Source: a virus
Lineage: Duplodnaviria; Heunggongvirae; Uroviricota; Caudoviricetes
Strand: one strand, 5' to 3'
Length of the DNA: 6,798 bases
Virus record (IMG/VR): IMGVR_UViG_2690316243_000012
Part shown: positions 1-6,798 of the stretch, in pieces
Layout: each line of letters begins with the position of its first letter
Numbering within the stretch: the stretch's first letter is position 1
Position numbers and translations under genes: made by a program
Notes under the pieces: model-generated
The model's database searches: none
Told to the model about the DNA's origin: nothing
Seen by the model: only the letters and a program-made list of their open reading frames with translations

Positions 1-12
1 AGTGTAGCGGTA

Positions 13-1290
13 TTAAGCGCAGCTATTTAGTGAATTAAGTAAATTAGTCAGTGACCTTGTAAAGTCTGTTAAACCTTCCTGTGAACCATCGAACATTAAG
101 GCCAGATTATTATTCCATGAATTACTTAAGCGGCCTAACTGCGTCTGAGTAGAGTTAATAATCTTTTCCCATCCACCAGCTTTATCAATCATCCTTCCCA
201 TTTCAGCGGATACTTTAGGAAGAACATCTTTAGAAAGAACCTTACCGTCTTTCATGGCCTTGTCTAATTCTTCCGTAGTCATCCCAAGACTTCTGGCAAA
301 TAACTGAAAAGCACCTGCCATTCTGTCACCTAATTGACCGCGTAGCTCTTCAGCCTGAATCTTTCCTTTAGATGCCATCTGCTCGAAAGCTTTTAAAATC
401 CCGTTAATTTCATCGGTGCTTAGCCCCATTAATCTGGATGTACCAATCACATTAGAAAATAAGGATTCTTTCTGGTCTGCATTCATATCACCAGCACCAG
501 CGGAAAACTTAGCAAAACTGCTTAATGTTTCAATCTGGTCTACACCACTACTATCAGCAAGATTCTTAACAAATTCTGTAGCTCGTTTAGCACCTTCATC
601 ACCTAAAACGAATTGTGCCGCTCGTTGTGATGCTTCTTTTTTCAGACCAACCTCCATAATCCGCCTGTAAGCTTCTAAGGCTGTCTGAAAACTATAAATG
701 GCTGTACCTGCTTTGATTGCACTCGTAGCTAATACATCCAGACTATTTGAAGCATTTTCACTGTGATTATTTTTGCTGGTGGTCTTGTTAAACTTAGAAA
801 GTGTTTCACGAAGAGACTGATTTAACTTTGCTAACTCACGATTAAAAGTTTCGTTTCCAAGTGTCTTGGATTTACTGCTTAAGCTGTAATACTGGCTTTT
901 AAAATACTTCTCAAGCATAGGATTAAAGTCACGAAGCTTGCTCATATTCGCTGAGTAAGCTGCTGTGATTGCTCTGCTTCCGCTAATTCGTGGCTGTCTT
1001 GGTTGTCTAAGTGGCTTTAAAGTATCCTCAATTTCAGTTTTAATCTTAAACGCTCTAGTGTTTTTAAGACGCTGCTCAATCTTGGAAACAGTTTTATCGA
1101 CATTTCTTTCCATTAGTTTGAGAGAATCATTTAAAGGCGTAGGATTAACTCTAAACGACTTATTCAATCGCTTCTCAATTCGTGATGCTACCTGCATCGT
1201 TTGTTTCTCGGCTTTTTCCAAGCCTTTTAAAACTTTCTGAGAGTTAAAACTTAACTCAATCAGAAAATCATCAACTTTAAATTGTGCCAT
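13..1290 (-). CDS. Phage tail tape-measure-domain protein (425 aa); atypically short, domain near C-terminus
   Basis: ORF-track ORF. ATG at 1290-1288 with SD AAAGAGGTG about 10 nt upstream (rc of 1299-1307); TAA stop at 15-13. Residues ~285-385 (SKGKIQAEELRGQLGDRMAGAFQLFARSLGMTTEELDKAMKDGKVLSKDVLPKV) match the duplicated GK..EEL / G.S/T.EEL.K...GK...D.LPK signature I recall from the conserved core of tape-measure proteins. The N-terminal ~280 aa are K/E/S/N/L-rich (coiled-coil-like). Product call is from memory, not a search. Confidence 0.6.
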   Translation of the reverse strand: MAQFKVDDFLIELSFNSQKVLKGLEKAEKQTMQVASRIEKRLNKSFRVNPTPLNDSLKLMERNVDKTVSKIEQRLKNTRAFKIKTEIEDTLKPLRQPRQPRISGSRAITAAYSANMSKLRDFNPMLEKYFKSQYYSLSSKSKTLGNETFNRELAKLNQSLRETLSKFNKTTSKNNHSENASNSLDVLATSAIKAGTAIYSFQTALEAYRRIMEVGLKKEASQRAAQFVLGDEGAKRATEFVKNLADSSGVDQIETLSSFAKFSAGAGDMNADQKESLFSNVIGTSRLMGLSTDEINGILKAFEQMASKGKIQAEELRGQLGDRMAGAFQLFARSLGMTTEELDKAMKDGKVLSKDVLPKVSAEMGRMIDKAGGWEKIINSTQTQLGRLSNSWNNNLALMFDGSQEGLTDFTRSLTNLLNSLNSCA

Positions 1291-1380
1291 TCATATTTTT
1301 CACCTCTTTAAGCGTGTTGTACGTAAATTCTATTTTTCAGTGTGGGTATTAGCTTTACAGATTTCACGTAGCACACATAC

Positions 1381-1423
1381 AAAAAAAGGGAGAGCTACCG
1401 ATGTCACTCGATAATCTCTCCCC
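1381..1423 (-). terminator. Candidate intrinsic terminator after the 69-aa gene
   Basis: Perfect 7-bp stem GGGAGAG (1388-1394) / CTCTCCC (1416-1422) with a 21-nt loop; on the minus strand the hairpin is followed by a run of 7 T (rc of A-run 1381-1387). The loop is large for a classical terminator. Confidence 0.45.
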
Positions 1424-1446: not shown

Positions 1447-1656
1447 TTAATGTCGGACAAGATAATGTAATTCCGTTTCACCTATGATTTGAGCATCAGA
1501 AGGAATACGGTCAATACACCACTTTGGAATCTTGCGTGTTTTTGGTTTGTGTGAGGTGATAACTTGACGTTTGTTTTTAATTCTTAAGGCTGGCTTAGTT
1601 TGTAACTTTAAGTTTTCACAAACAGACCGAATAGTCTCTAAACGTTCTTCAAACAT
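1447..1656 (-). CDS. Hypothetical small basic protein (69 aa)
   Basis: ORF-track ORF. ATG at 1656-1654 with strong SD AAAGAGGTG 5 nt upstream (rc of 1662-1670). The same TAAAGAGGTG context precedes the tape-measure-domain gene. Starts 22 nt after the TGA stop of the 236-aa gene. No recognisable family. Confidence 0.5.
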   Translation of the reverse strand: MFEERLETIRSVCENLKLQTKPALRIKNKRQVITSHKPKTRKIPKWCIDRIPSDAQIIGETELHYLVRH

Positions 1657-1678: not shown

Positions 1679-2389
1679 TCAAACAGCCTTGCTATACTTC
1701 TGAGAAATCTTCGTTAACTGCTCAATATCAGCCATCAAAGCAATCTTCTTCTGCGACTCATATTCACTAACAAGTTCTTTCATAGTATCAAGTTCTTTTT
1801 TAAGCTTTTGCTTTAACTTATCCAGTTTACCGGAATAATGCTTAGTCAAATTAGCTTCAGCTAACTGAAGAATCTCTTCATCTGTTTTATCAGTCATCAG
1901 AATAAATTGACCAGAACCCCTTAATGCTTGTCTGACATCAATTAACCGGAACCCTTCAGGGATACTTTGAAGAACTTTAGGAACGTCTTCAATCGCTGTA
2001 CCAAAACCATCATTAAAGTTTCCTTCATAATAGATAAACGGGTTTGACTTAATCTCGTAAGCAATATCATATTCTGAAGGTTTCGAGGTTTCTTCGAAGT
2101 TCTTAGCAGCATCGTAAGCGACATCAAGTCTAAGACGCTGTGATTTTAAAGCTGGGTAATATTCACGCTCAAGCTCAAATAGTGCTTCAGTTTTGCAGAT
2201 ATCAGGCATTTCTTGAGGCTCAGGAGACACAAAGGAAATTACCTTTGGTGACATCTTTAGCTCTTGCTCAAGCTCAATGCGCTTGTCATGCTCTTGACGC
2301 TGAATAGTATGTAGCGGATGTTCACCCTGTGGTGACCAGTCTCCGAAGCTATCAACCTTTTTACCGTTAATATATAAATCGTTTGTCAT
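1679..2389 (-). CDS. Hypothetical protein (236 aa), function unknown
   Basis: ORF-track ORF. ATG at 2389-2387 with SD AGAGGA 7 nt upstream (rc of 2397-2402); TGA stop at 1681-1679. Acidic, coiled-coil-like C-terminus (KLDKLKQKLKKELDTMKELVSEYESQKK). I do not recognise the family. Confidence 0.65.
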   Translation of the reverse strand: MTNDLYINGKKVDSFGDWSPQGEHPLHTIQRQEHDKRIELEQELKMSPKVISFVSPEPQEMPDICKTEALFELEREYYPALKSQRLRLDVAYDAAKNFEETSKPSEYDIAYEIKSNPFIYYEGNFNDGFGTAIEDVPKVLQSIPEGFRLIDVRQALRGSGQFILMTDKTDEEILQLAEANLTKHYSGKLDKLKQKLKKELDTMKELVSEYESQKKIALMADIEQLTKISQKYSKAV

Positions 2390-2413: not shown

Positions 2414-2491
2414 TTTCTTAATAGAGCACCTTCAACGCCAATACACTTAGAAGATGACTTAACGATTTATTAAAGATGCTCTATTAAGAAA
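2414..2491. promoter_or_regulatory. Perfect 15-bp inverted repeat pair with 48-bp spacer, 25-102 nt upstream of the 236-aa gene start
   Basis: TTTCTTAATAGAGCA (2414-2428) and its exact reverse complement TGCTCTATTAAGAAA (2477-2491); read directly from the sequence. Could be operator half-sites or a long-range RNA stem in the 5' leader. Confidence 0.4.
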
Positions 2492-2580: not shown

Positions 2581-2617
2581 AAAACTCTTAAAGAAAGCCC
2601 TAACTCATGATTAGGGC
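2581..2617 (-). terminator. Candidate intrinsic terminator ending the upstream minus-strand transcription unit
   Basis: 7-bp stem GCCCTAA (2597-2603) / TTAGGGC (2611-2617) with a 7-nt loop; on the minus strand it is followed by TTTCTTTAAGAGTTTTT (rc of 2581-2596). A second hairpin, AAGCCCT (2491-2497) / AGGGCTT (2513-2519) with a 15-nt loop, lies 80 bp further along the minus strand. Confidence 0.5.
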
Positions 2618-2904
2618 AAAGCTGTAAAGGATTCAATAATGAATGAACAAAGACTTTTTGAGATAGCCTCTCAGACCAACCTGAAAGGCTAGGACGAAAA
2701 GCATTGCACCTTTCCAACTCAGAATATCCATCCATCGGATTATTGAAAGAAAAAATAAGAGAGAATTGCTCTCCCCCATATATACAATTATGTCATGCTC
2801 AAGGTTGTTTGTCAACAGCTTTTAACAGATTGGTAACATTTATACTTTAATAGATGCACCTGCAATCATACCAATCAATACAAAACAGATAATCACCAAT
2901 TCCA

Positions 2905-3228
2905 TTAATGCACCACCTTCGAATCCGTCACCAGAATATTATCGCTATACAAAATTGCTATAGCCGCCTTGAGATATTTTTCAGGGCTAACGCTGTATTT
3001 GTTCGTTTCTTCGATAATAAGACGCTTCATGTTTGAGTCGGTAACAGGAAACATAAAACGCGGTTCACCAGTTTCAATTTCCTGAATAAAGTCTTCAATT
3101 TCTTCTGAGTTTTCAGCCATTAGCTTTAGTAATTTATCAAGGTCAATTGATACACCGGAATCAGCGAAAGCCTGCACCATCATAGCAGTGTCGCTATCAA
3201 TGAAAATCTGTAATTCATATTCGTTCAT
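2905..3228 (-). CDS. Hypothetical acidic protein (107 aa from the ATG start)
   Basis: ORF-track ORF 2905..3261 begins at a TTG. The in-frame ATG at 3228-3226 has a strong SD AAAGGAG 8 nt upstream (minus strand GGTAAAAAGGAGATTTTAAAAATG), so I place the start there. TAA stop at 2907-2905. No recognisable family. Confidence 0.55.
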   Translation of the reverse strand: MNEYELQIFIDSDTAMMVQAFADSGVSIDLDKLLKLMAENSEEIEDFIQEIETGEPRFMFPVTDSNMKRLIIEETNKYSVSPEKYLKAAIAILYSDNILVTDSKVVH

Positions 3229-3248
3229 TTTTAAAATCTCCTTTTTAC

Positions 3249-3370
3249 CAGACCTCCTCAATCGCTCTGTAACGAGCTAAACAGTCTTTTTCAGGGGTAG
3301 CCTGTACAGTGGTATTACCCACCCTAAAATAAGATAGTTTTTTGCGTTAGAATGCGATTGAGAGCGTCTG
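3249..3370 (+). repeat. Repeat element copy A: ~122-bp element with imperfect ~27-bp terminal inverted repeats
   Basis: Left arm CAGACCTCCTCAATCGCTCTGTAACGAG (3249-3276); right arm GCGTTAGAATGCGATTGAGAGCGTCTG (3344-3370), whose reverse complement CAGACGCTCTCAATCGCATTCTAACGC matches the left arm at about 19 of 25 positions. Homologous to copy B (4901-4998) and, inverted, to copy C (6286-6392). Lies between two minus-strand genes, its left end 21 nt from the ATG at 3228. Confidence 0.65.
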
Positions 3371-3406
3371 ATAAGCTGTTTTTCTAATTTCTCTTAAAGT
3401 CTCGGA

Positions 3407-3607
3407 CTACCAATAACCTAATTCCGCTTTATTTCGTTCAAACCATTCCGCTGTAACTGCTGTCTTTAGTGTTGCGTTTGGGCTGGTGGCATGAATGAAG
3501 ATATCTTTTGGATTGCAAGCATCACCGAAACCACCTTCTTTGATGAGCAGGTCTGATACATGCTTAATCATTTTATCTGTCAAATATTCGAATTTAATAC
3601 ATAACAT
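3407..3607 (-). CDS. Hypothetical small protein (66 aa from the ATG start; track ORF extends to a TTG at 3640)
   Basis: ORF-track ORF 3407..3640 begins at a TTG. The in-frame ATG at 3607-3605 overlaps the TAA stop of the upstream HNH-like gene (minus strand TAATG) and has SD GGAG 5 nt upstream, a classic translational-coupling junction. TAG stop at 3409-3407. No recognisable family. Confidence 0.45.
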   Translation of the reverse strand: MLCIKFEYLTDKMIKHVSDLLIKEGGFGDACNPKDIFIHATSPNATLKTAVTAEWFERNKAELGYW

Positions 3608-3879
3608 TAAATCTCCAGGAGTAAATTGTTTGGGTGGCAATTTCTTTTATTACCATCCCTGAAGATAATCTTTTTAGTTGCCTGAACTTCATGATGCAAA
3701 AACCAGATGACATACTTCAGATAATAATCACGAGTGCCATAACGAATCATTGGATTACCGTAAGCATCATCTCTTGTCTTAACCTCTCCACCATCAATCC
3801 ATTCAAGCATTCCTGTCTCATAATTAATCATGAAGTAAGTTGCAAAGAACCGTTTAATATCATCTCGCCATTGCTTCAT
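3607..3879 (-). CDS. HNH_3/NUMOD4-like small protein (90 aa), probably catalytically degenerate
   Basis: ORF-track ORF. ATG at 3879-3877 with SD AGGAGG 7 nt upstream. N-terminal LEWIDGGEV...YGNPMIRYG resembles the NUMOD4 motif; C-terminal YLKYVIWFLHHEV...IIFRDGNKRNCHPNNL resembles the HNH_3 motif (H.DGNK.NN...NL), but the position of the catalytic His reads F-R-D-G. Family assignment from memory. Confidence 0.5.
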   Translation of the reverse strand: MKQWRDDIKRFFATYFMINYETGMLEWIDGGEVKTRDDAYGNPMIRYGTRDYYLKYVIWFLHHEVQATKKIIFRDGNKRNCHPNNLLLEI

Positions 3880-3881
3880 AA

Positions 3882-4160
3882 TCAGACCTCCTGAGACAGT
3901 TTGTGAATTTTGATACTTAGTAACCTTGCTAAATCCAGTCCAAAAGCATTTAAGGATTTCAGACTATCAAGGTCATCTTGCTTAATCCTGATATGGTGTC
4001 TTGCAGCCTCTAAGCGACTATTAAGCAAATCCTGTTCGTTAATATCACGGTTAATTGCAAGCTTCATCACTGCTGAGTGTGGCAGACCTGTAATGTTTTT
4101 GATTCGGTTCAGTTCATCAAAGGCTGTCTTTGTAACTCTGGTTAATGTGTGTTTATTCAT
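3882..4160 (-). CDS. Hypothetical small protein (92 aa), possibly DNA-binding
   Basis: ORF-track ORF. ATG at 4160-4158 directly follows the TAA stop of the 185-aa gene (minus strand TAAATG) with SD GAGGA 8 nt upstream; TGA stop at 3884-3882, 2 nt before the next ATG. No recognisable family. Confidence 0.5.
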   Translation of the reverse strand: MNKHTLTRVTKTAFDELNRIKNITGLPHSAVMKLAINRDINEQDLLNSRLEAARHHIRIKQDDLDSLKSLNAFGLDLARLLSIKIHKLSQEV

Positions 4161-4718
4161 TTAAAAATCCTCTGTAACTAAATAGGGGTCAAACTCGAAA
4201 TCTGGTTGCTCGTTTTCCATTGGCTCAATATTCCCAACGGCAATATGATGTTCAACAATGCCAATTAATTTCGCGCACATCACAGCAAGCAAAGCGCAAT
4301 ATTTATCGCTTGGTAATTCGTAACTAAGTCTGGTTGCCTGTCGCTGAAGATGATTTGTCACGGTGGATGCGTTAATTTCGTCAAGATTCTTTAGCAGATA
4401 AAATAGTTTTTTGTTGTATTTCGGGTGGCCTTCACTTCTACAGAACCCAATAAAAACATCATCAAGCTTGCTTGGTAACTGCTCGTAACTGTCAAAGTTA
4501 GCCAGATAATTTTTAATAGTATTCTTTGTTGTTTTGCGTACTGGCATAAATCTGTCTCGTGGCGTAATGCTACGAATGACCGCTTCAATGTTCTTACGTT
4601 CGGATTTGCTAAAGGTTGGGACTTCGTAGCTGGTGGGGTTGTTTGTGTAAGCGTAGGAGTTGTGCTTGTTGCGTTCTCTTGATGCCTGAAGCATCGCTCT
4701 AAATTCTGAATACTGCAT
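4161..4718 (-). CDS. Hypothetical protein (185 aa); first gene of the minus-strand operon
   Basis: ORF-track ORF. ATG at 4718-4716, TAA stop at 4163-4161. About 45 nt downstream of the predicted minus-strand promoter; the SD is weak (GAGAG ~11 nt upstream). No recognisable family. Confidence 0.6.
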   Translation of the reverse strand: MQYSEFRAMLQASRERNKHNSYAYTNNPTSYEVPTFSKSERKNIEAVIRSITPRDRFMPVRKTTKNTIKNYLANFDSYEQLPSKLDDVFIGFCRSEGHPKYNKKLFYLLKNLDEINASTVTNHLQRQATRLSYELPSDKYCALLAVMCAKLIGIVEHHIAVGNIEPMENEQPDFEFDPYLVTEDF

Positions 4719-4769
4719 TCATGTTCTGACTCTCATAAGATGTTATTATTCTGTTAACCTATATATACA

Positions 4770-4798
4770 ATATTAGCATTTTCAAAGACTAATGTCAA
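4770..4798 (-). promoter_or_regulatory. Candidate sigma70 promoter for the minus-strand operon
   Basis: On the minus strand: -35 TTGACA (rc of 4793-4798), 17-bp spacer, -10 TAATAT (rc of 4770-4775). Read directly; the -35 matches consensus perfectly. Confidence 0.5.
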
Positions 4799-4804
4799 GT
4801 ATTT

Positions 4805-4834
4805 TTAACATTTTCGTAACATCTGTGGTATAAT
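4805..4834 (+). promoter_or_regulatory. Candidate sigma70 promoter with extended -10, driving the plus-strand small-protein transcript
   Basis: -35 TTAACA (4805-4810), 18-bp spacer, extended -10 TGgTATAAT (4826-4834). Its -35 is 6 bp from the -35 of the divergent minus-strand promoter. Confidence 0.55.
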
Positions 4835-4900
4835 GGGTTTATGGGGAGAGTAAAATATGAGGCGTGGCTATGTATTTGGTCGCATATTTTGCATTGCACA

Positions 4901-4998
4901 CAGACCTCTTCAATCGCCCTGTAACGAGTTAAACGACCTCTTCAGGTCAACTCATAAGGTCAGGTACTTTTTGTGTCAGAATGCGATTGAGAGCGTCT
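4901..4998 (+). repeat. Repeat element copy B: ~98-bp homologue of copy A, in the leader of the small membrane-protein gene
   Basis: Left arm CAGACCTCTTCAATCGCCCTGTAACGAG (4901-4928) matches A's left arm at 26 of 28 positions; right arm GTCAGAATGCGATTGAGAGCGTCT (4975-4998) carries the same AGAATGCGATTGAGAGCGTCT core as A. The interior shares the first ~20 bp with A (TAAAC..CT.TTCAGG), then is ~20 bp shorter. Ends 15 nt before the ATG at 5013. Confidence 0.65.
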
Positions 4999-5012
4999 TA
5001 CAAGGAAAACTA

Positions 5013-5189
5013 ATGGTAAATCTCCCTCCTGAGCTGGGGTCACCTGATGTATGGACTGGTGGAGGTATTGGGCTGATTGCAGGCCTGCTACTTCGCTACG
5101 TCCTCGTCAGAGTGCTTGTTGTCTTTAAACTGTTCGGTCGTACATGGACGCTTGACCTTAAGGATAACGACCACACAGACCCCCGTTAA
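5013..5189 (+). CDS. Small single-pass membrane protein (58 aa); candidate toxin, holin-like or exclusion peptide
   Basis: ATG at 5013 with SD AAGGA 7 nt upstream; TAA stop at 5187-5189. Translation MVNLPPELGSPDVWTGGGIGLIAGLLLRYVLVRVLVVFKLFGRTWTLDLKDNDHTDPR has one hydrophobic helix (about residues 15-41). The track ORF 4857..5189 is the same frame extended to an ATG at 4857, which has its own SD GGAGAG; that N-terminal extension is encoded entirely by repeat copy B, so I prefer the short form. Confidence 0.5.
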   Translation: MVNLPPELGSPDVWTGGGIGLIAGLLLRYVLVRVLVVFKLFGRTWTLDLKDNDHTDPR

Positions 5190-5200
5190 ACTCCTTCAAA

Positions 5201-5260
5201 ACCCCTGCACGAGATGACAGATAGAAGTCTATGGTACAGGGGTGTCTTTAGCATTTTGTG
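5201..5260 (+). terminator. Candidate terminator-like hairpin after the small membrane-protein gene
   Basis: Perfect 7-bp stem ACCCCTG (5201-5207) / CAGGGGT (5237-5243) with a 29-nt loop that has its own short inverted repeat (ATAG..CTAT), followed by the T-rich GTCTTTAGCATTTTGTG. The large loop makes this a weak call. Confidence 0.3.
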
Positions 5261-5324
5261 CTATCTATTAAAAAATAGCTTGACAGAACCGGAAAGCTGT
5301 ATCTATCAAGCATTCACCTCTCTG

Positions 5325-5501
5325 ACAGTAATTTCTAAAAGTTCTTATTTTTCAATAAGTTGTAATTAGCCATATATAGAGAACTGACAAGTCTCTTCAC
5401 AGACAACTCTGCAACCTTAACAGTAACTTCTAAAAATGCTTATTTTTCAACGAGTTGTAATCACCCAATATATAAGGCTGTCCAGTACCTTCACAGATAA
5501 C
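5325..5501. repeat. Tandem direct repeat, two ~83-bp units at a ~95-bp period
   Basis: Unit 1 (5325-5407) and unit 2 (5420-5501) share ordered blocks ACAGTAA, TTCTAAAA, TTATTTTTCAA, AGTTGTAAT, ATATATA, CTTCACAGA, AAC, with divergent sequence between them (by eye roughly 70% identical). A partial third copy (ACAGTAACTT plus AT-rich tail) is at 6457-6490. Confidence 0.7.
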
Positions 5502-6285
5502 TTCAAGCCCTCTTAACCGCCCCACTAATCGGGAGAAGAGCGATAACCCCAGAGAGGGAAGCTCCTTTCTTAACCGACCTCTTAAACGACCTTTACAGAC
5601 CTTGTTCAAGGTAATCACAATAGTTTTTCTTCCCTCGGTTTCCTGTGTTCCTCGGCTGGCTATTGAGATTTGAAAGACCTCTGTAAGCGCTCTCTTAGCG
5701 AGAGAAAAATCATTCATAGTGACCCCAAGCGAAGCGCCCCTCTAAAAAAAGATTTTTTAGCTATTTTGTTTAAAAGCATATCAAACGATACATTTTATTG
5801 ATTTAGGTCAAAGACAAAAGCATTGACAAAATGGTAAGATTGTTCACATGACCTTACTTAACAGACTTTTAAGAGACTTTGAAACAGCCTGTTTAACAGG
5901 TCACTACCTCTGGTCTTATCGTTCCCTTCTTTCTAGGTGGTTATCTGTTAAGAGTTTTTCAGTTTTTATTCTTAAGATAATTGTTAAGATGATACTCTCC
6001 CTTCGGGTTATATCGTATCTCTTCTCCCGTTAAATATCCCTTCACAGTCAGACTAAATAACACCTGTGTAGTTCTTGGTAGAATCTTTCAAGGTAACTTA
6101 GCTCTGAGTTTATGAAGTTGACCTATGAGATAGACTCTACCGAATCTGTTAGTCAATTGTTGCTTAGGTGCTGCTAAGGCTTACTTAGTGGAAAGAGAGG
6201 GGATATGTGACCATAGGGGAACCCCTCCTGTTAAAAGACTACTTAGAAGTCTGAGGTTTTAGTAAAATCTGTGAATATGGCTTCT

Positions 6286-6392
6286 CAGACGCTCTGTAAC
6301 GCATTCTAAGCGATTTTACCCCTTTATTTTAAGGTGGTTAGTACATCCCTATAGGTTACCCCTAAAAATGGGGTTAAAACTCGCTACAGAGC
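6286..6392 (-). repeat. Repeat element copy C: inverted, diverged copy of element A/B lacking the outer left arm
   Basis: Plus-strand CAGACGCTCTGTAACGCATTCTAAGCG (6286-6312) matches the reverse complement of A's right arm (CAGACGCTCT....GCATTCTAA identical apart from CAATC to GTAAC). The reverse complement of 6313-6392 aligns with A's interior and inner left arm (AGGGGTAACCTATAGGG vs AGGGGTAGCCTGTACAG; CCACCTTAAAATAAA vs CCACCCTAAAATAAG; GCTCTGTAGCGAG vs GCTCTGTAACGAG). Confidence 0.55.
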
Positions 6393-6643
6393 TTTCTATG
6401 AGATTAGCTTCTAATCGAATCAACTATGAGGTTTGGTAGGATTGTGCAAAATCTGTACAGTAACTTTTCAGAATCTGAAAATTTTTATAAAAAATGACTA
6501 GCCCTCTTTGAATCTCATCTTCCCCGAATCTTCAAAAATATCTGACAGATGTCTGTAGCTGCTAAGTACCCGTCACACCAGCTATGTGACCCCCTTGGCA
6601 AAAAAGCCAAATATCAGCTACATCCATGTAACTATTCAGTAAC

Positions 6644-6798
6644 TTATTTAGCAAGTCTGTAATAAGTTGCTCTAGAGATTCCTAACTCTTCCTGAATCTG
6701 CAACCTCGTCTTACCTTGTGAAATAAGCGTCTGTACAGCCTCTGAAGAAGCTTTTACAGGCCTCCCCATATGTACCCCTTCAGCTTTAGCACGTTCAA
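6644..6798 (-). CDS. Small serine recombinase (resolvase/invertase family), C-terminal HTH domain only; 5' part lies beyond the window
   Basis: Not in the ORF track (only 50 codons inside the window). Minus-strand translation of 6796-6647 is ERAKAEGVHMGRPVKASSEAVQTLISQGKTRLQIQEELGISRATYYRLAK, then TAA at 6646-6644. The GRP motif followed by a helix-turn-helix ending ..G.SR.T.YR.. is the characteristic C-terminus of Hin/Gin/Tn3-resolvase-type serine recombinases (from memory). Confidence 0.7.
   Translation of the reverse strand, partial: ERAKAEGVHMGRPVKASSEAVQTLISQGKTRLQIQEELGISRATYYRLAK

Follow-up and report, generated by a model that had tools for sequence, protein, structure and literature searches.

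The PLEs of Vibrio cholerae carry a large serine recombinase, have the virulent myophage ICP1 as their helper and possess no capsid genes; they encode a tape measure, a chaperone and a baseplate hub of their own, and the resulting chimeric tails are ~10 nm shorter than those of the helper (PMC12987554). The PLE tape measure is needed for transduction, and in one variant it also blocks the tape measure of the phage; other putative satellites carry tmp genes as well, those named being Vibrio PLE-like elements and cf-PICIs (PMC12987554). The DNA analyzed here, a stretch of 6,798 nucleotides (nt) filed as IMG/VR virus record IMGVR_UViG_2690316243_000012 and referred to below as the window, is the entire contig CXCY01000174.1 of assembly GCA_001258795.1, and it holds part of a chromosomal island of Escherichia coli and related bacteria that bears comparison with the PLEs. 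The open reading frame (ORF) at its left end, which encodes a 425-amino-acid (aa) protein with a tape-measure domain, is a gene truncated by the insertion sequence (IS) IS630, and we propose that the parent island is a satellite of Felixounavirus phages with a tape measure and a tube initiator of its own. We put the probability of this combined reading at roughly 0.6, the satellite part being the one that we infer.

The 425-aa ORF occupies positions 13..1290 on the minus strand. Profile searches of the kind suggested in a preliminary description of this DNA return a tape-measure domain from Pfam, NCBIfam and PHROG alike. TMP_3 (PF20155) spans residues 229-396 with 75.7 bits (cut-off 41; E 5e-21), and TIGR02675 (tape_meas_nterm), found at residues 290-358 of an intact relative (57.4 bits vs 21.35), falls at ~287-355 of the 425-aa protein; the latter agrees with the tape-measure core that had been placed at residues ~285-385. 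PHROG tape-measure profiles also match strongly, over their first ~60-65% only (phrog_4036 at positions 250-470 of 749). The nearest phage proteins are tape measures of the Ounavirinae, from Felixounavirus and Hafnia phages, which are 735-763 aa long, share 32-44% identity with the protein and align to it from residue 1 to ~411. Judged from these alignments, the protein is the N-terminal ~60% (the front 61%) of a tape measure: it holds residues 1-421 of ~690, lacks the C-terminal ~270, and with them the hydrophobic middle and the conserved C-terminus (..SSAYPEE) that intact copies and the phage protein have in common. The impression that it is unusually short for a tape measure was hence correct, its relatives being 682-763 aa long. 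The accompanying remark that the domain normally lies nearer the N-terminus fails for Felixounavirus tape measures, in which the conserved block sits at ~275-466 of 742 residues (PDB 9ndy_F); because this block too is in the middle of the protein, the position of the domain is normal and only the missing C-terminal ~270 residues are abnormal.

The cause of the truncation can be read at base resolution. Positions 1..27 of the window are the terminal 27 nt of IS630, which read AATAGCTGCGCTTAATACCGCTACACT on the minus strand; the target of the insertion is the TA of a CTAG. Positions 28..1290 (minus strand) are native and hold the 5' end of the island tape-measure gene, 421 of its ~688-691 codons (1-421), and homology to the intact genes of E. 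coli (688-691 aa) begins exactly at 28; in complete E. coli genomes, related DNA matches the window from that position onward only. The ORF thus consists of 421 native codons followed by four codons (N-S-C-A) and a stop supplied by the IS630 end. On the minus strand of the window the break reads ..TTCACTA followed directly by AATAGCTGCGCTTAATACCGCTACACT, as against ..TTCACTAGGTGG.. in intact E. coli genes, or in short form ..CACTA/AATAGC.. as against ..CACTAGGTGG... A longer S. sonnei contig runs directly into a DDE_3 transposase gene 5 nt past the ORF stop, and this transposase belongs to the IS630 family by NCBIfam NF033545 (236 bits, cut-off 100). In the complete Shigella sonnei chromosomes CP023645.1 and JBEAAA010000004.1 the element measures 1153 bp, is bounded by AATAGCTGCGC.. 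and ..GCGCAGCTATT, has terminal inverted repeats AATAGCTGCGC.., and occupies a CTAG target with TA on both sides (..CACTA[IS]TAGGTGG.. vs ..CACTAGGTGG.. in E. coli); the published length and target of IS630 are the same. The same two chromosomes hold the remainder of the gene. Directly past IS630 come tape-measure residues 424-562, then an IS3-family element, then tape-measure residues ~560-691, residues 1-131 of the next gene (the tube initiator) and a further IS.

All contigs that carry the 425-aa protein stop at the IS or just inside it, and the window contig ends at position 1 because IS630 is repeated in the genome. The exact protein is recorded under S. sonnei, and in its 667-member cluster every member that was inspected has 425 aa or fewer. 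It could be asked whether the 425-aa form is native and functional, either as a mini tape measure or as a tape-measure domain put to another use: nothing interrupts the ORF between start and stop, its ribosome-binding site and an upstream palindrome have been kept, and it is fixed in S. sonnei. Against this, IS630 contributes the last four codons and the stop, the 270 codons that should follow are found past the element in pieces compatible in frame, no IS-free genome carries a 425-aa form, and the intact relatives examined are all 682-726 aa long. The IS630 junction excludes a native short form for practical purposes, and we give it next to no credence. The shortness of the ORF is damage to a ~690-aa gene by IS630 insertion, not design. 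Since the C-terminus of a tape measure sits in the baseplate and the C-terminal ~270 residues are missing, the fragment cannot measure a tail. Both the insertion and the resulting pseudogene are ordinary for IS630 of S. sonnei. With two IS in the tape measure, one in the tube initiator and no intact recombinase nearby, the S. sonnei copy of the island is a decaying and probably immobile relic.

What the gene was before the insertion is apparent from its intact relatives. The island tape measures, at 682-726 aa, supply the longer homologue that the preliminary description had thought worth looking for, and they are 10-80 aa shorter than the phage copies. An intact island tape measure aligns over residues 1-691 to residues 1-741 of PDB 9ndy_F, "Tape measure protein (gp017)" (E 2.6e-72), and the 256-aa product of the next gene, labelled "phage baseplate protein" in database records, matches PDB 9ndy_A, "Tube initiator protein (gp018)" (E 5.6e-106), and contains the Pfam domain Dit_like. 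Gene order, end-to-end homology and the conservation of both termini are thus the same as in the Felixounavirus pair gp017/gp018. The phage pair, however, sits within a complete module of sheath, tube, two chaperones, tape measure, tube initiator, hub, spike, wedges and fibres, whereas in the island no other tail gene accompanies the pair, which is preceded by a terminator and an island-specific palindrome. Beyond the left end of the window, where a search for distal tail or baseplate genes had been suggested, there is a tail gene, preceded by the IS630 and the rest of the tape measure; in none of the relatives does the protein lie within a complete tail module, so that the reported absence of a canonical tail-gene context stands. 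Of the interpretations offered at the outset, a truncated tape measure is the correct one, with an IS630 at CTAG as the cause and the remainder of the gene beyond it. The notion of a short-tailed satellite version is half right, in that the parent gene belongs to a satellite-like island and is somewhat shorter than its phage counterparts, while the length of 425 aa is mere damage. A domain recruited for another role finds no support: intact relatives match a structurally verified tape measure over its entire length and retain its two termini.

The two proteins differ in their distance from the phage: the island tube initiator is 66-71% identical to Felixounavirus proteins and the island tape measure only ~31% to that of the phage. 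A search of the phage collection with the tube initiator gives 299 records, and all those listed are Ounavirinae-type genomes, either ~85-88-kb Escherichia, Salmonella, Shigella and Citrobacter phages at 60-71% or remoter phages of Erwinia, Hafnia and other hosts. One record stands out among the matches, namely OK283618.1, "Listeria phage LPML1" (87 kb), which gives the best tape-measure match (44%) together with a 46% tube-initiator match and in this resembles the Hafnia Ounavirinae; a Listeria host looks odd for a genome of the Ounavirinae type, and the record may be mislabelled. Megablast of the window against phage genomes gave no match, similarity being confined to the protein level and to short non-coding stretches. 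The pairwise dN/dS values of intact island tape measures (0.12-0.31), together with termini conserved with those of phage tape measures, indicate that the island tail genes are under purifying selection.

These genes belong to a discrete island of ~11.2 kb, which a large serine recombinase integrates at no fewer than three chromosomal sites. When all the loci retrieved are mapped by tblastn, the genes follow one constant order: a small serine recombinase or other cargo, a ~2-kb ORF-poor region, genes for 185 and 92 aa, an HNH gene with a 66-aa gene (or a 128-aa alternative), a 107-aa gene, a gap, genes for 236 and ~70 aa, the tape measure, the 256-aa protein and, convergent with these, the large serine recombinase with Resolvase, Recombinase and Zn-ribbon domains. 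Variants are mosaic, with identities of 48-96% for the tape measure, 24-86% for the 236-aa protein and 29-35% for the recombinase. In strain A0 34/86 the island measures ~11.17 kb, and a 13-bp direct repeat, TCAAGGGTCATTG, delimits it at the tonB start codon; the empty tonB/yciI site is found in most E. coli. Other copies lie between wrbA and ymdF or inside yecE, each with a different recombinase. Carriage amounts to 469-544 of 5426 complete E. coli genomes (~9%), always on the chromosome and at as many as 4-5 positions in one genome. Database records also assign homologues of island proteins to S. flexneri, E. albertii and Salmonella enterica; the species-level genome collection, searched with close-relative patterns, yielded E. 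albertii only. Three metagenome contigs (11,330, 11,484 and 11,551 bp) each contain a complete island and stop only a few bases from its junctions. We considered whether these contigs might be circles and rejected this, as they have no terminal overlap and carry a few host bases at their ends; because they end at the junctions with so little host DNA, they point to sharp boundaries between presence and absence, that is, to junction polymorphism.

Among the island proteins, Pfam, PHROG and NCBIfam recognize no capsid, portal, terminase, sheath, tube, chaperone, wedge or fibre gene. The only virion genes are those for the tape measure and the tube initiator, which are neighbours in the phage and whose products come together where the tail tube begins. 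Upstream of the tape-measure ATG the island remains homologous to the phage for another ~40 nt, which in the phage form the 3' end of the chaperone gene, and it is for this reason that we regard the tail genes as captured from a phage genome and the ~40-nt point as the point of capture. The same observation could be taken to mean that the island is a cryptic prophage remnant, in which a full tail module was once present, two tail genes were left by deletion and no present function remains, and the visible decay of the S. sonnei copy would fit such a history. An architecture of ~11 kb, however, recurs with precise ends, at three sites and with different recombinases, in variants that are at least 50% divergent at the protein level, and the tail genes are under the purifying selection described above. 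The donor Ounavirinae, moreover, are ~85-kb phages of virulent lifestyle, the annotated genome of the Felixounavirus LinBro lists no integrase, and no intermediate, larger prophage was seen. We consider a prophage remnant improbable.

We favor instead the interpretation that the island is a satellite. Like a PLE, it is a small chromosomal element with its own large serine recombinase and, in intact relatives if not in the S. sonnei copy, defined ends; it is linked to a virulent contractile-tailed phage, lacks capsid genes and most tail genes, and encodes a tape measure and a homologue of the baseplate hub or tube initiator of one specific phage group. In both systems the tape measure is somewhat shorter than that of the helper, and it has diverged from it further than the hub-side partner has (~31% vs 66-71% in the island, 20% vs 41% in the PLE). 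It is this pattern of a strongly diverged tape measure beside a better-conserved partner that leads us to propose a chimeric-tail satellite. A conserved small RNA may be a further point of likeness, a candidate being present in the island and SviR in the PLE. The likeness that we claim is one of strategy, not of ancestry. PLEs have another host and another helper family, and at ~18 kb they are larger than the ~11-kb island. In the island, moreover, neither a tail chaperone nor a replication initiator nor a capsid-remodelling gene is recognizable. The cf-PICI, PICI and P4-like elements are likewise chromosomal islands of E. coli and its relatives that depend on helper phages. By the same three profile collections the present island has no capsid, portal, terminase, primase, tyrosine-integrase or AlpA-type regulator gene, and its phage homologues come from a virulent group while the helpers of PICI and P4-like elements are temperate.

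On this model, a cell that carries the island and is infected by a Felixounavirus phage would be provided by the island with a second tape measure and tube initiator, two proteins that would meet at the start of the tail tube, and the helper would contribute the capsid and everything else in the tail. The outcome would be chimeric, slightly shorter tails, probably at some cost to the phage, as with the PLEs and ICP1 in V. cholerae. The island would then be a further case of a recently established kind of element, the chimeric-tail satellites. It is a larger step to regard it as an undescribed satellite family of E. coli, Shigella, E. albertii and Salmonella that parasitizes virulent Felix O1-type phages both by substitution of the tape measure and tube initiator and by means of cis elements copied from the terminal-repeat region of the helper; we advance this broader claim tentatively, as one that falls a little short of even odds. 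Our search of the literature found no paper that pairs satellites with Felix O1, Felixounavirus or Ounavirinae, within a limited library and with the proviso that the island may be described elsewhere.

The cis elements in question lie in the best-conserved DNA of the island, the ORF-poor region at 4719..6100, and in the DNA adjoining it. Variants of the island retain 79-92% nucleotide identity in this region, although identity between their tape measures is no more than 48-96%. Because the region is full of 1-2-nt indels, it is for the most part non-coding cis-acting DNA or RNA; the one exception is an ORF for a 58-aa hydrophobic protein at 5013..5189 on the plus strand, the only part with a codon-like substitution pattern (10/2/18). 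Two short blocks resemble phage LinBro. Block B (5893..5942) is 85% identical over 52 nt (E 1.8e-6) to a segment inside the ~590-bp direct terminal repeat of Felixounavirus genomes, and block A (6460..6500) is 88% identical over 41 nt (E 1.5e-7) to a segment ~65-105 nt outside the terminal-repeat boundary; both phage segments fall in the ~1.5-kb gene-free region of LinBro. A search of window positions 4719-6600 against 50,697 phage records gave matches in 54, of which 53 are named for Escherichia, Salmonella, Shigella, Enterobacteria or Felixounavirus, and every listed match is an 85-89-kb genome of the Felixounavirus size class. A terminal repeat of this kind is a direct repeat of 592 bp in phage ECP2307, and one of 581 bp was reported for another Felixounavirus with PhageTerm (PMC8303462). 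Both blocks are conserved in most island variants and in 3/3 phages examined. We tried the idea that they are a copy of the concatemer junction of the phage (a "pac-site copy") and rejected it, since order and spacing differ. On that arrangement the blocks are shared cis elements and not a copied junction, and they may serve as sites for phage proteins acting in packaging, replication or transcription.

Several observations weigh against a satellite. The order in the island is B, 520 nt, A, while in the phage it is A, repeat boundary, B; the palindrome that precedes the island tail genes has no counterpart in LinBro; the island contains no recognizable replication initiator, small terminase, capsid-size factor or chaperone; its 236-aa and 185-aa proteins gave no informative match; and excision, replication, packaging, transfer and induction by a phage are all putative. 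The main rival explanation is that the island serves defence only. In that case the tape measure and tube initiator would be decoys that enter or block tail assembly in infecting Felix O1-type phages and so protect the bacterial population, and the island would never be packaged, moving rarely by way of its recombinase and other routes. Interference with tail assembly is a known defence strategy (PMC11364771; for Rta, PMC12987554); packaging and replication genes cannot be recognized in the island; and a variable accessory cargo (Dam, HNH-AP2 and FRG-domain genes) is typical of defence hotspots. On the other hand, PADLOC matched no defence model to any of the ten island proteins submitted to it, and a tape measure that is phage-like at both termini and constrained along its whole length fits a protein that builds tails better than a mere inhibitor. 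The blocks held in common with the terminal region of the phage, and the mosaic variants, several att sites and several copies per genome, which imply frequent horizontal movement, also speak against an island that is only defensive. We regard a purely defensive role as unlikely, though it deserves more weight than the other alternatives.

Of the remaining genes in the window, the two that lie upstream of the tape measure had been described as unlike the overlapping chaperone pair that normally occupies this position, and that assessment is confirmed: the 69-aa basic protein (1447..1656, minus strand; h71 family) and the 236-aa protein (1679..2389, minus strand) match no tail-assembly-chaperone family, whereas both chaperones of Felixounavirus strongly match phrog_1613 and phrog_4963. 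The 69-aa gene is conserved in position in all islands. The 236-aa protein is specific to the island and forms an orphan family, with only 19 related clusters among 1.84 billion representatives; its model (pLDDT 80) predicts a long antiparallel coiled coil with a small alpha/beta insert and has no specific fold match. It is labelled "transposase" in hundreds of RefSeq/NCBI records, a label that finds no support in Pfam, NCBIfam, PHROG or the fold search and is probably a propagated annotation error.

Further to the right, at 2905..4718 on the minus strand, lie one or more operons of island genes, among which only the HNH gene has a recognizable function. They encode proteins of 185 aa (4161-4718), 92 aa (3882-4160), a small HNH endonuclease of 90 aa (3607-3879), 66/77 aa (3407-3640) and 107/118 aa (2905-3261); the model of the 185-aa protein (pLDDT 50) was too poor for a fold search, and in locus L039 genes for 325 and 98 aa take the place of the 185-aa gene. 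A tiny hydrophobic ORF at 2841-2906 (minus strand) could encode a peptide of 21-25 aa and overlaps the stop of the 107-aa gene (TAATG). The 58-aa ORF of the ORF-poor region, which diverges from the 185-aa operon, would specify a single-helix membrane protein of 58-62 aa and is annotated as a 62-aa gene in some E. coli records. At the far end of the window, 6644..6798 (minus strand) holds the 3' end of a small serine recombinase of the resolvase/invertase type, cut by the contig end. It marks the accessory end of the island, the one away from the large recombinase, whose cargo changes with the variant and may consist of one or more small serine recombinases, a Dam methyltransferase, an HNH-AP2 nuclease, FRG-domain genes and others without an assigned function, or an ISLad2-type IS (L034 13837-18837; L035 12573-13241; L036 1644-2312; L041 1017-1541; L039 2515-3785).

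The window is also rich in predicted signals. Back-to-back sigma-70-like promoters at 4770..4834 face the 185-aa operon on the minus strand and the small membrane-protein ORF on the plus strand. At 2590..2815 (minus strand) a strong sigma-70 promoter, TTGACA-17-TG-CATAAT (2815-2787), is followed by a structured non-coding stretch of ~190 nt with a terminator at 2617-2597. The promoter is conserved in 10/11 aligned island variants, L026 having a variant -10, and the hairpins of the stretch keep their pairing through compensatory changes (7 pairs); we consider it a candidate constitutive small RNA of the island, to be compared with SviR of the PLEs and the CI RNA of P4. An Rfam scan of the whole window at E<=1 found no family. 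Other repeats include one of ~100-130 nt, present in two direct copies and one partial inverted copy (3249-3375, 4901-5004 and 6243-6309), and a tandem pair of ~95-nt units (5318-5467) in the most conserved non-coding stretch, all of which could be regulatory or origin-like elements.

The tail genes themselves are preceded by a distinctive arrangement. Behind the 69-aa gene, a hairpin with a T-run (GGGGAGAG..CTCTCCC TTTTTTT; 1381..1423, minus strand), read directly from the sequence, is terminator-like and looks like a terminator that would make the tape-measure gene a transcription unit of its own. It is followed, just upstream of the tape-measure ribosome-binding site, by a long palindrome, GTGTGCTACGTGAAATCT ... 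AGAATTTACGTACAACAC (1311..1376, minus strand), an element that in intact islands also occurs before the tube-initiator gene and after the small resolvase. Between the hairpin and the tape-measure gene we found no sigma-70-like promoter, and the tube-initiator gene likewise lies behind a terminator-like hairpin and an island-specific palindrome without such a promoter. For these reasons expression of the two genes may need an activator, which, speculatively, infection might supply. Long palindromes with arms of 18-22 nt and a spacer of ~30 nt directly precede the ribosome-binding site in three genes, those for the 236-aa protein, the tape measure and the tube initiator (window 2414-2491 and 1311-1376; L013 11058-11132 and ~19400-19475), and in other variants the palindrome of the 236-aa gene is swapped for a different one of the same shape. 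They could be operators or sites of RNA processing or attenuation. The possibility that the palindrome is a copied late-gene signal of the phage found no support, as it is absent from LinBro and from a 13-kb stretch of Zyzzx tail genes.

Other S. sonnei genomes and related copies display further rearrangements. In several complete S. sonnei genomes an IS1 lies inside the 107-aa gene (L042-L045, 11634-12331), which is intact in the window, and JBEAAA010000004.1 (L044) lacks a 361-bp stretch of the ORF-poor region (window 5386-5746). A different wreck of the same island occurs in other genomes (L023 1100-3900; L024 9900-10600), where all that is left of the tape measure is its last 67 codons, next to the end of an IS3-family element, and where an insertion divides the tube-initiator gene.

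Taken alone, the truncated gene is no more than an IS-made pseudogene of a sort common in Shigella. It leads, however, to an island carried by about 1 in 11 complete E. coli genomes, with two core tail genes of the Felix O1 type and DNA that echoes the ends of the phage genome, and the RefSeq labels "transposase" and "phage baseplate protein" conceal what is a coherent mobile element. If the satellite interpretation is true, the chimeric-tail strategy of the Vibrio PLEs would extend to the best-studied bacterium and a tractable host, the island would be a first candidate satellite for a virulent coliphage genus, and it would probably affect which hosts Felixounavirus phages can infect and how well they perform in Salmonella typing, food biocontrol and therapy.

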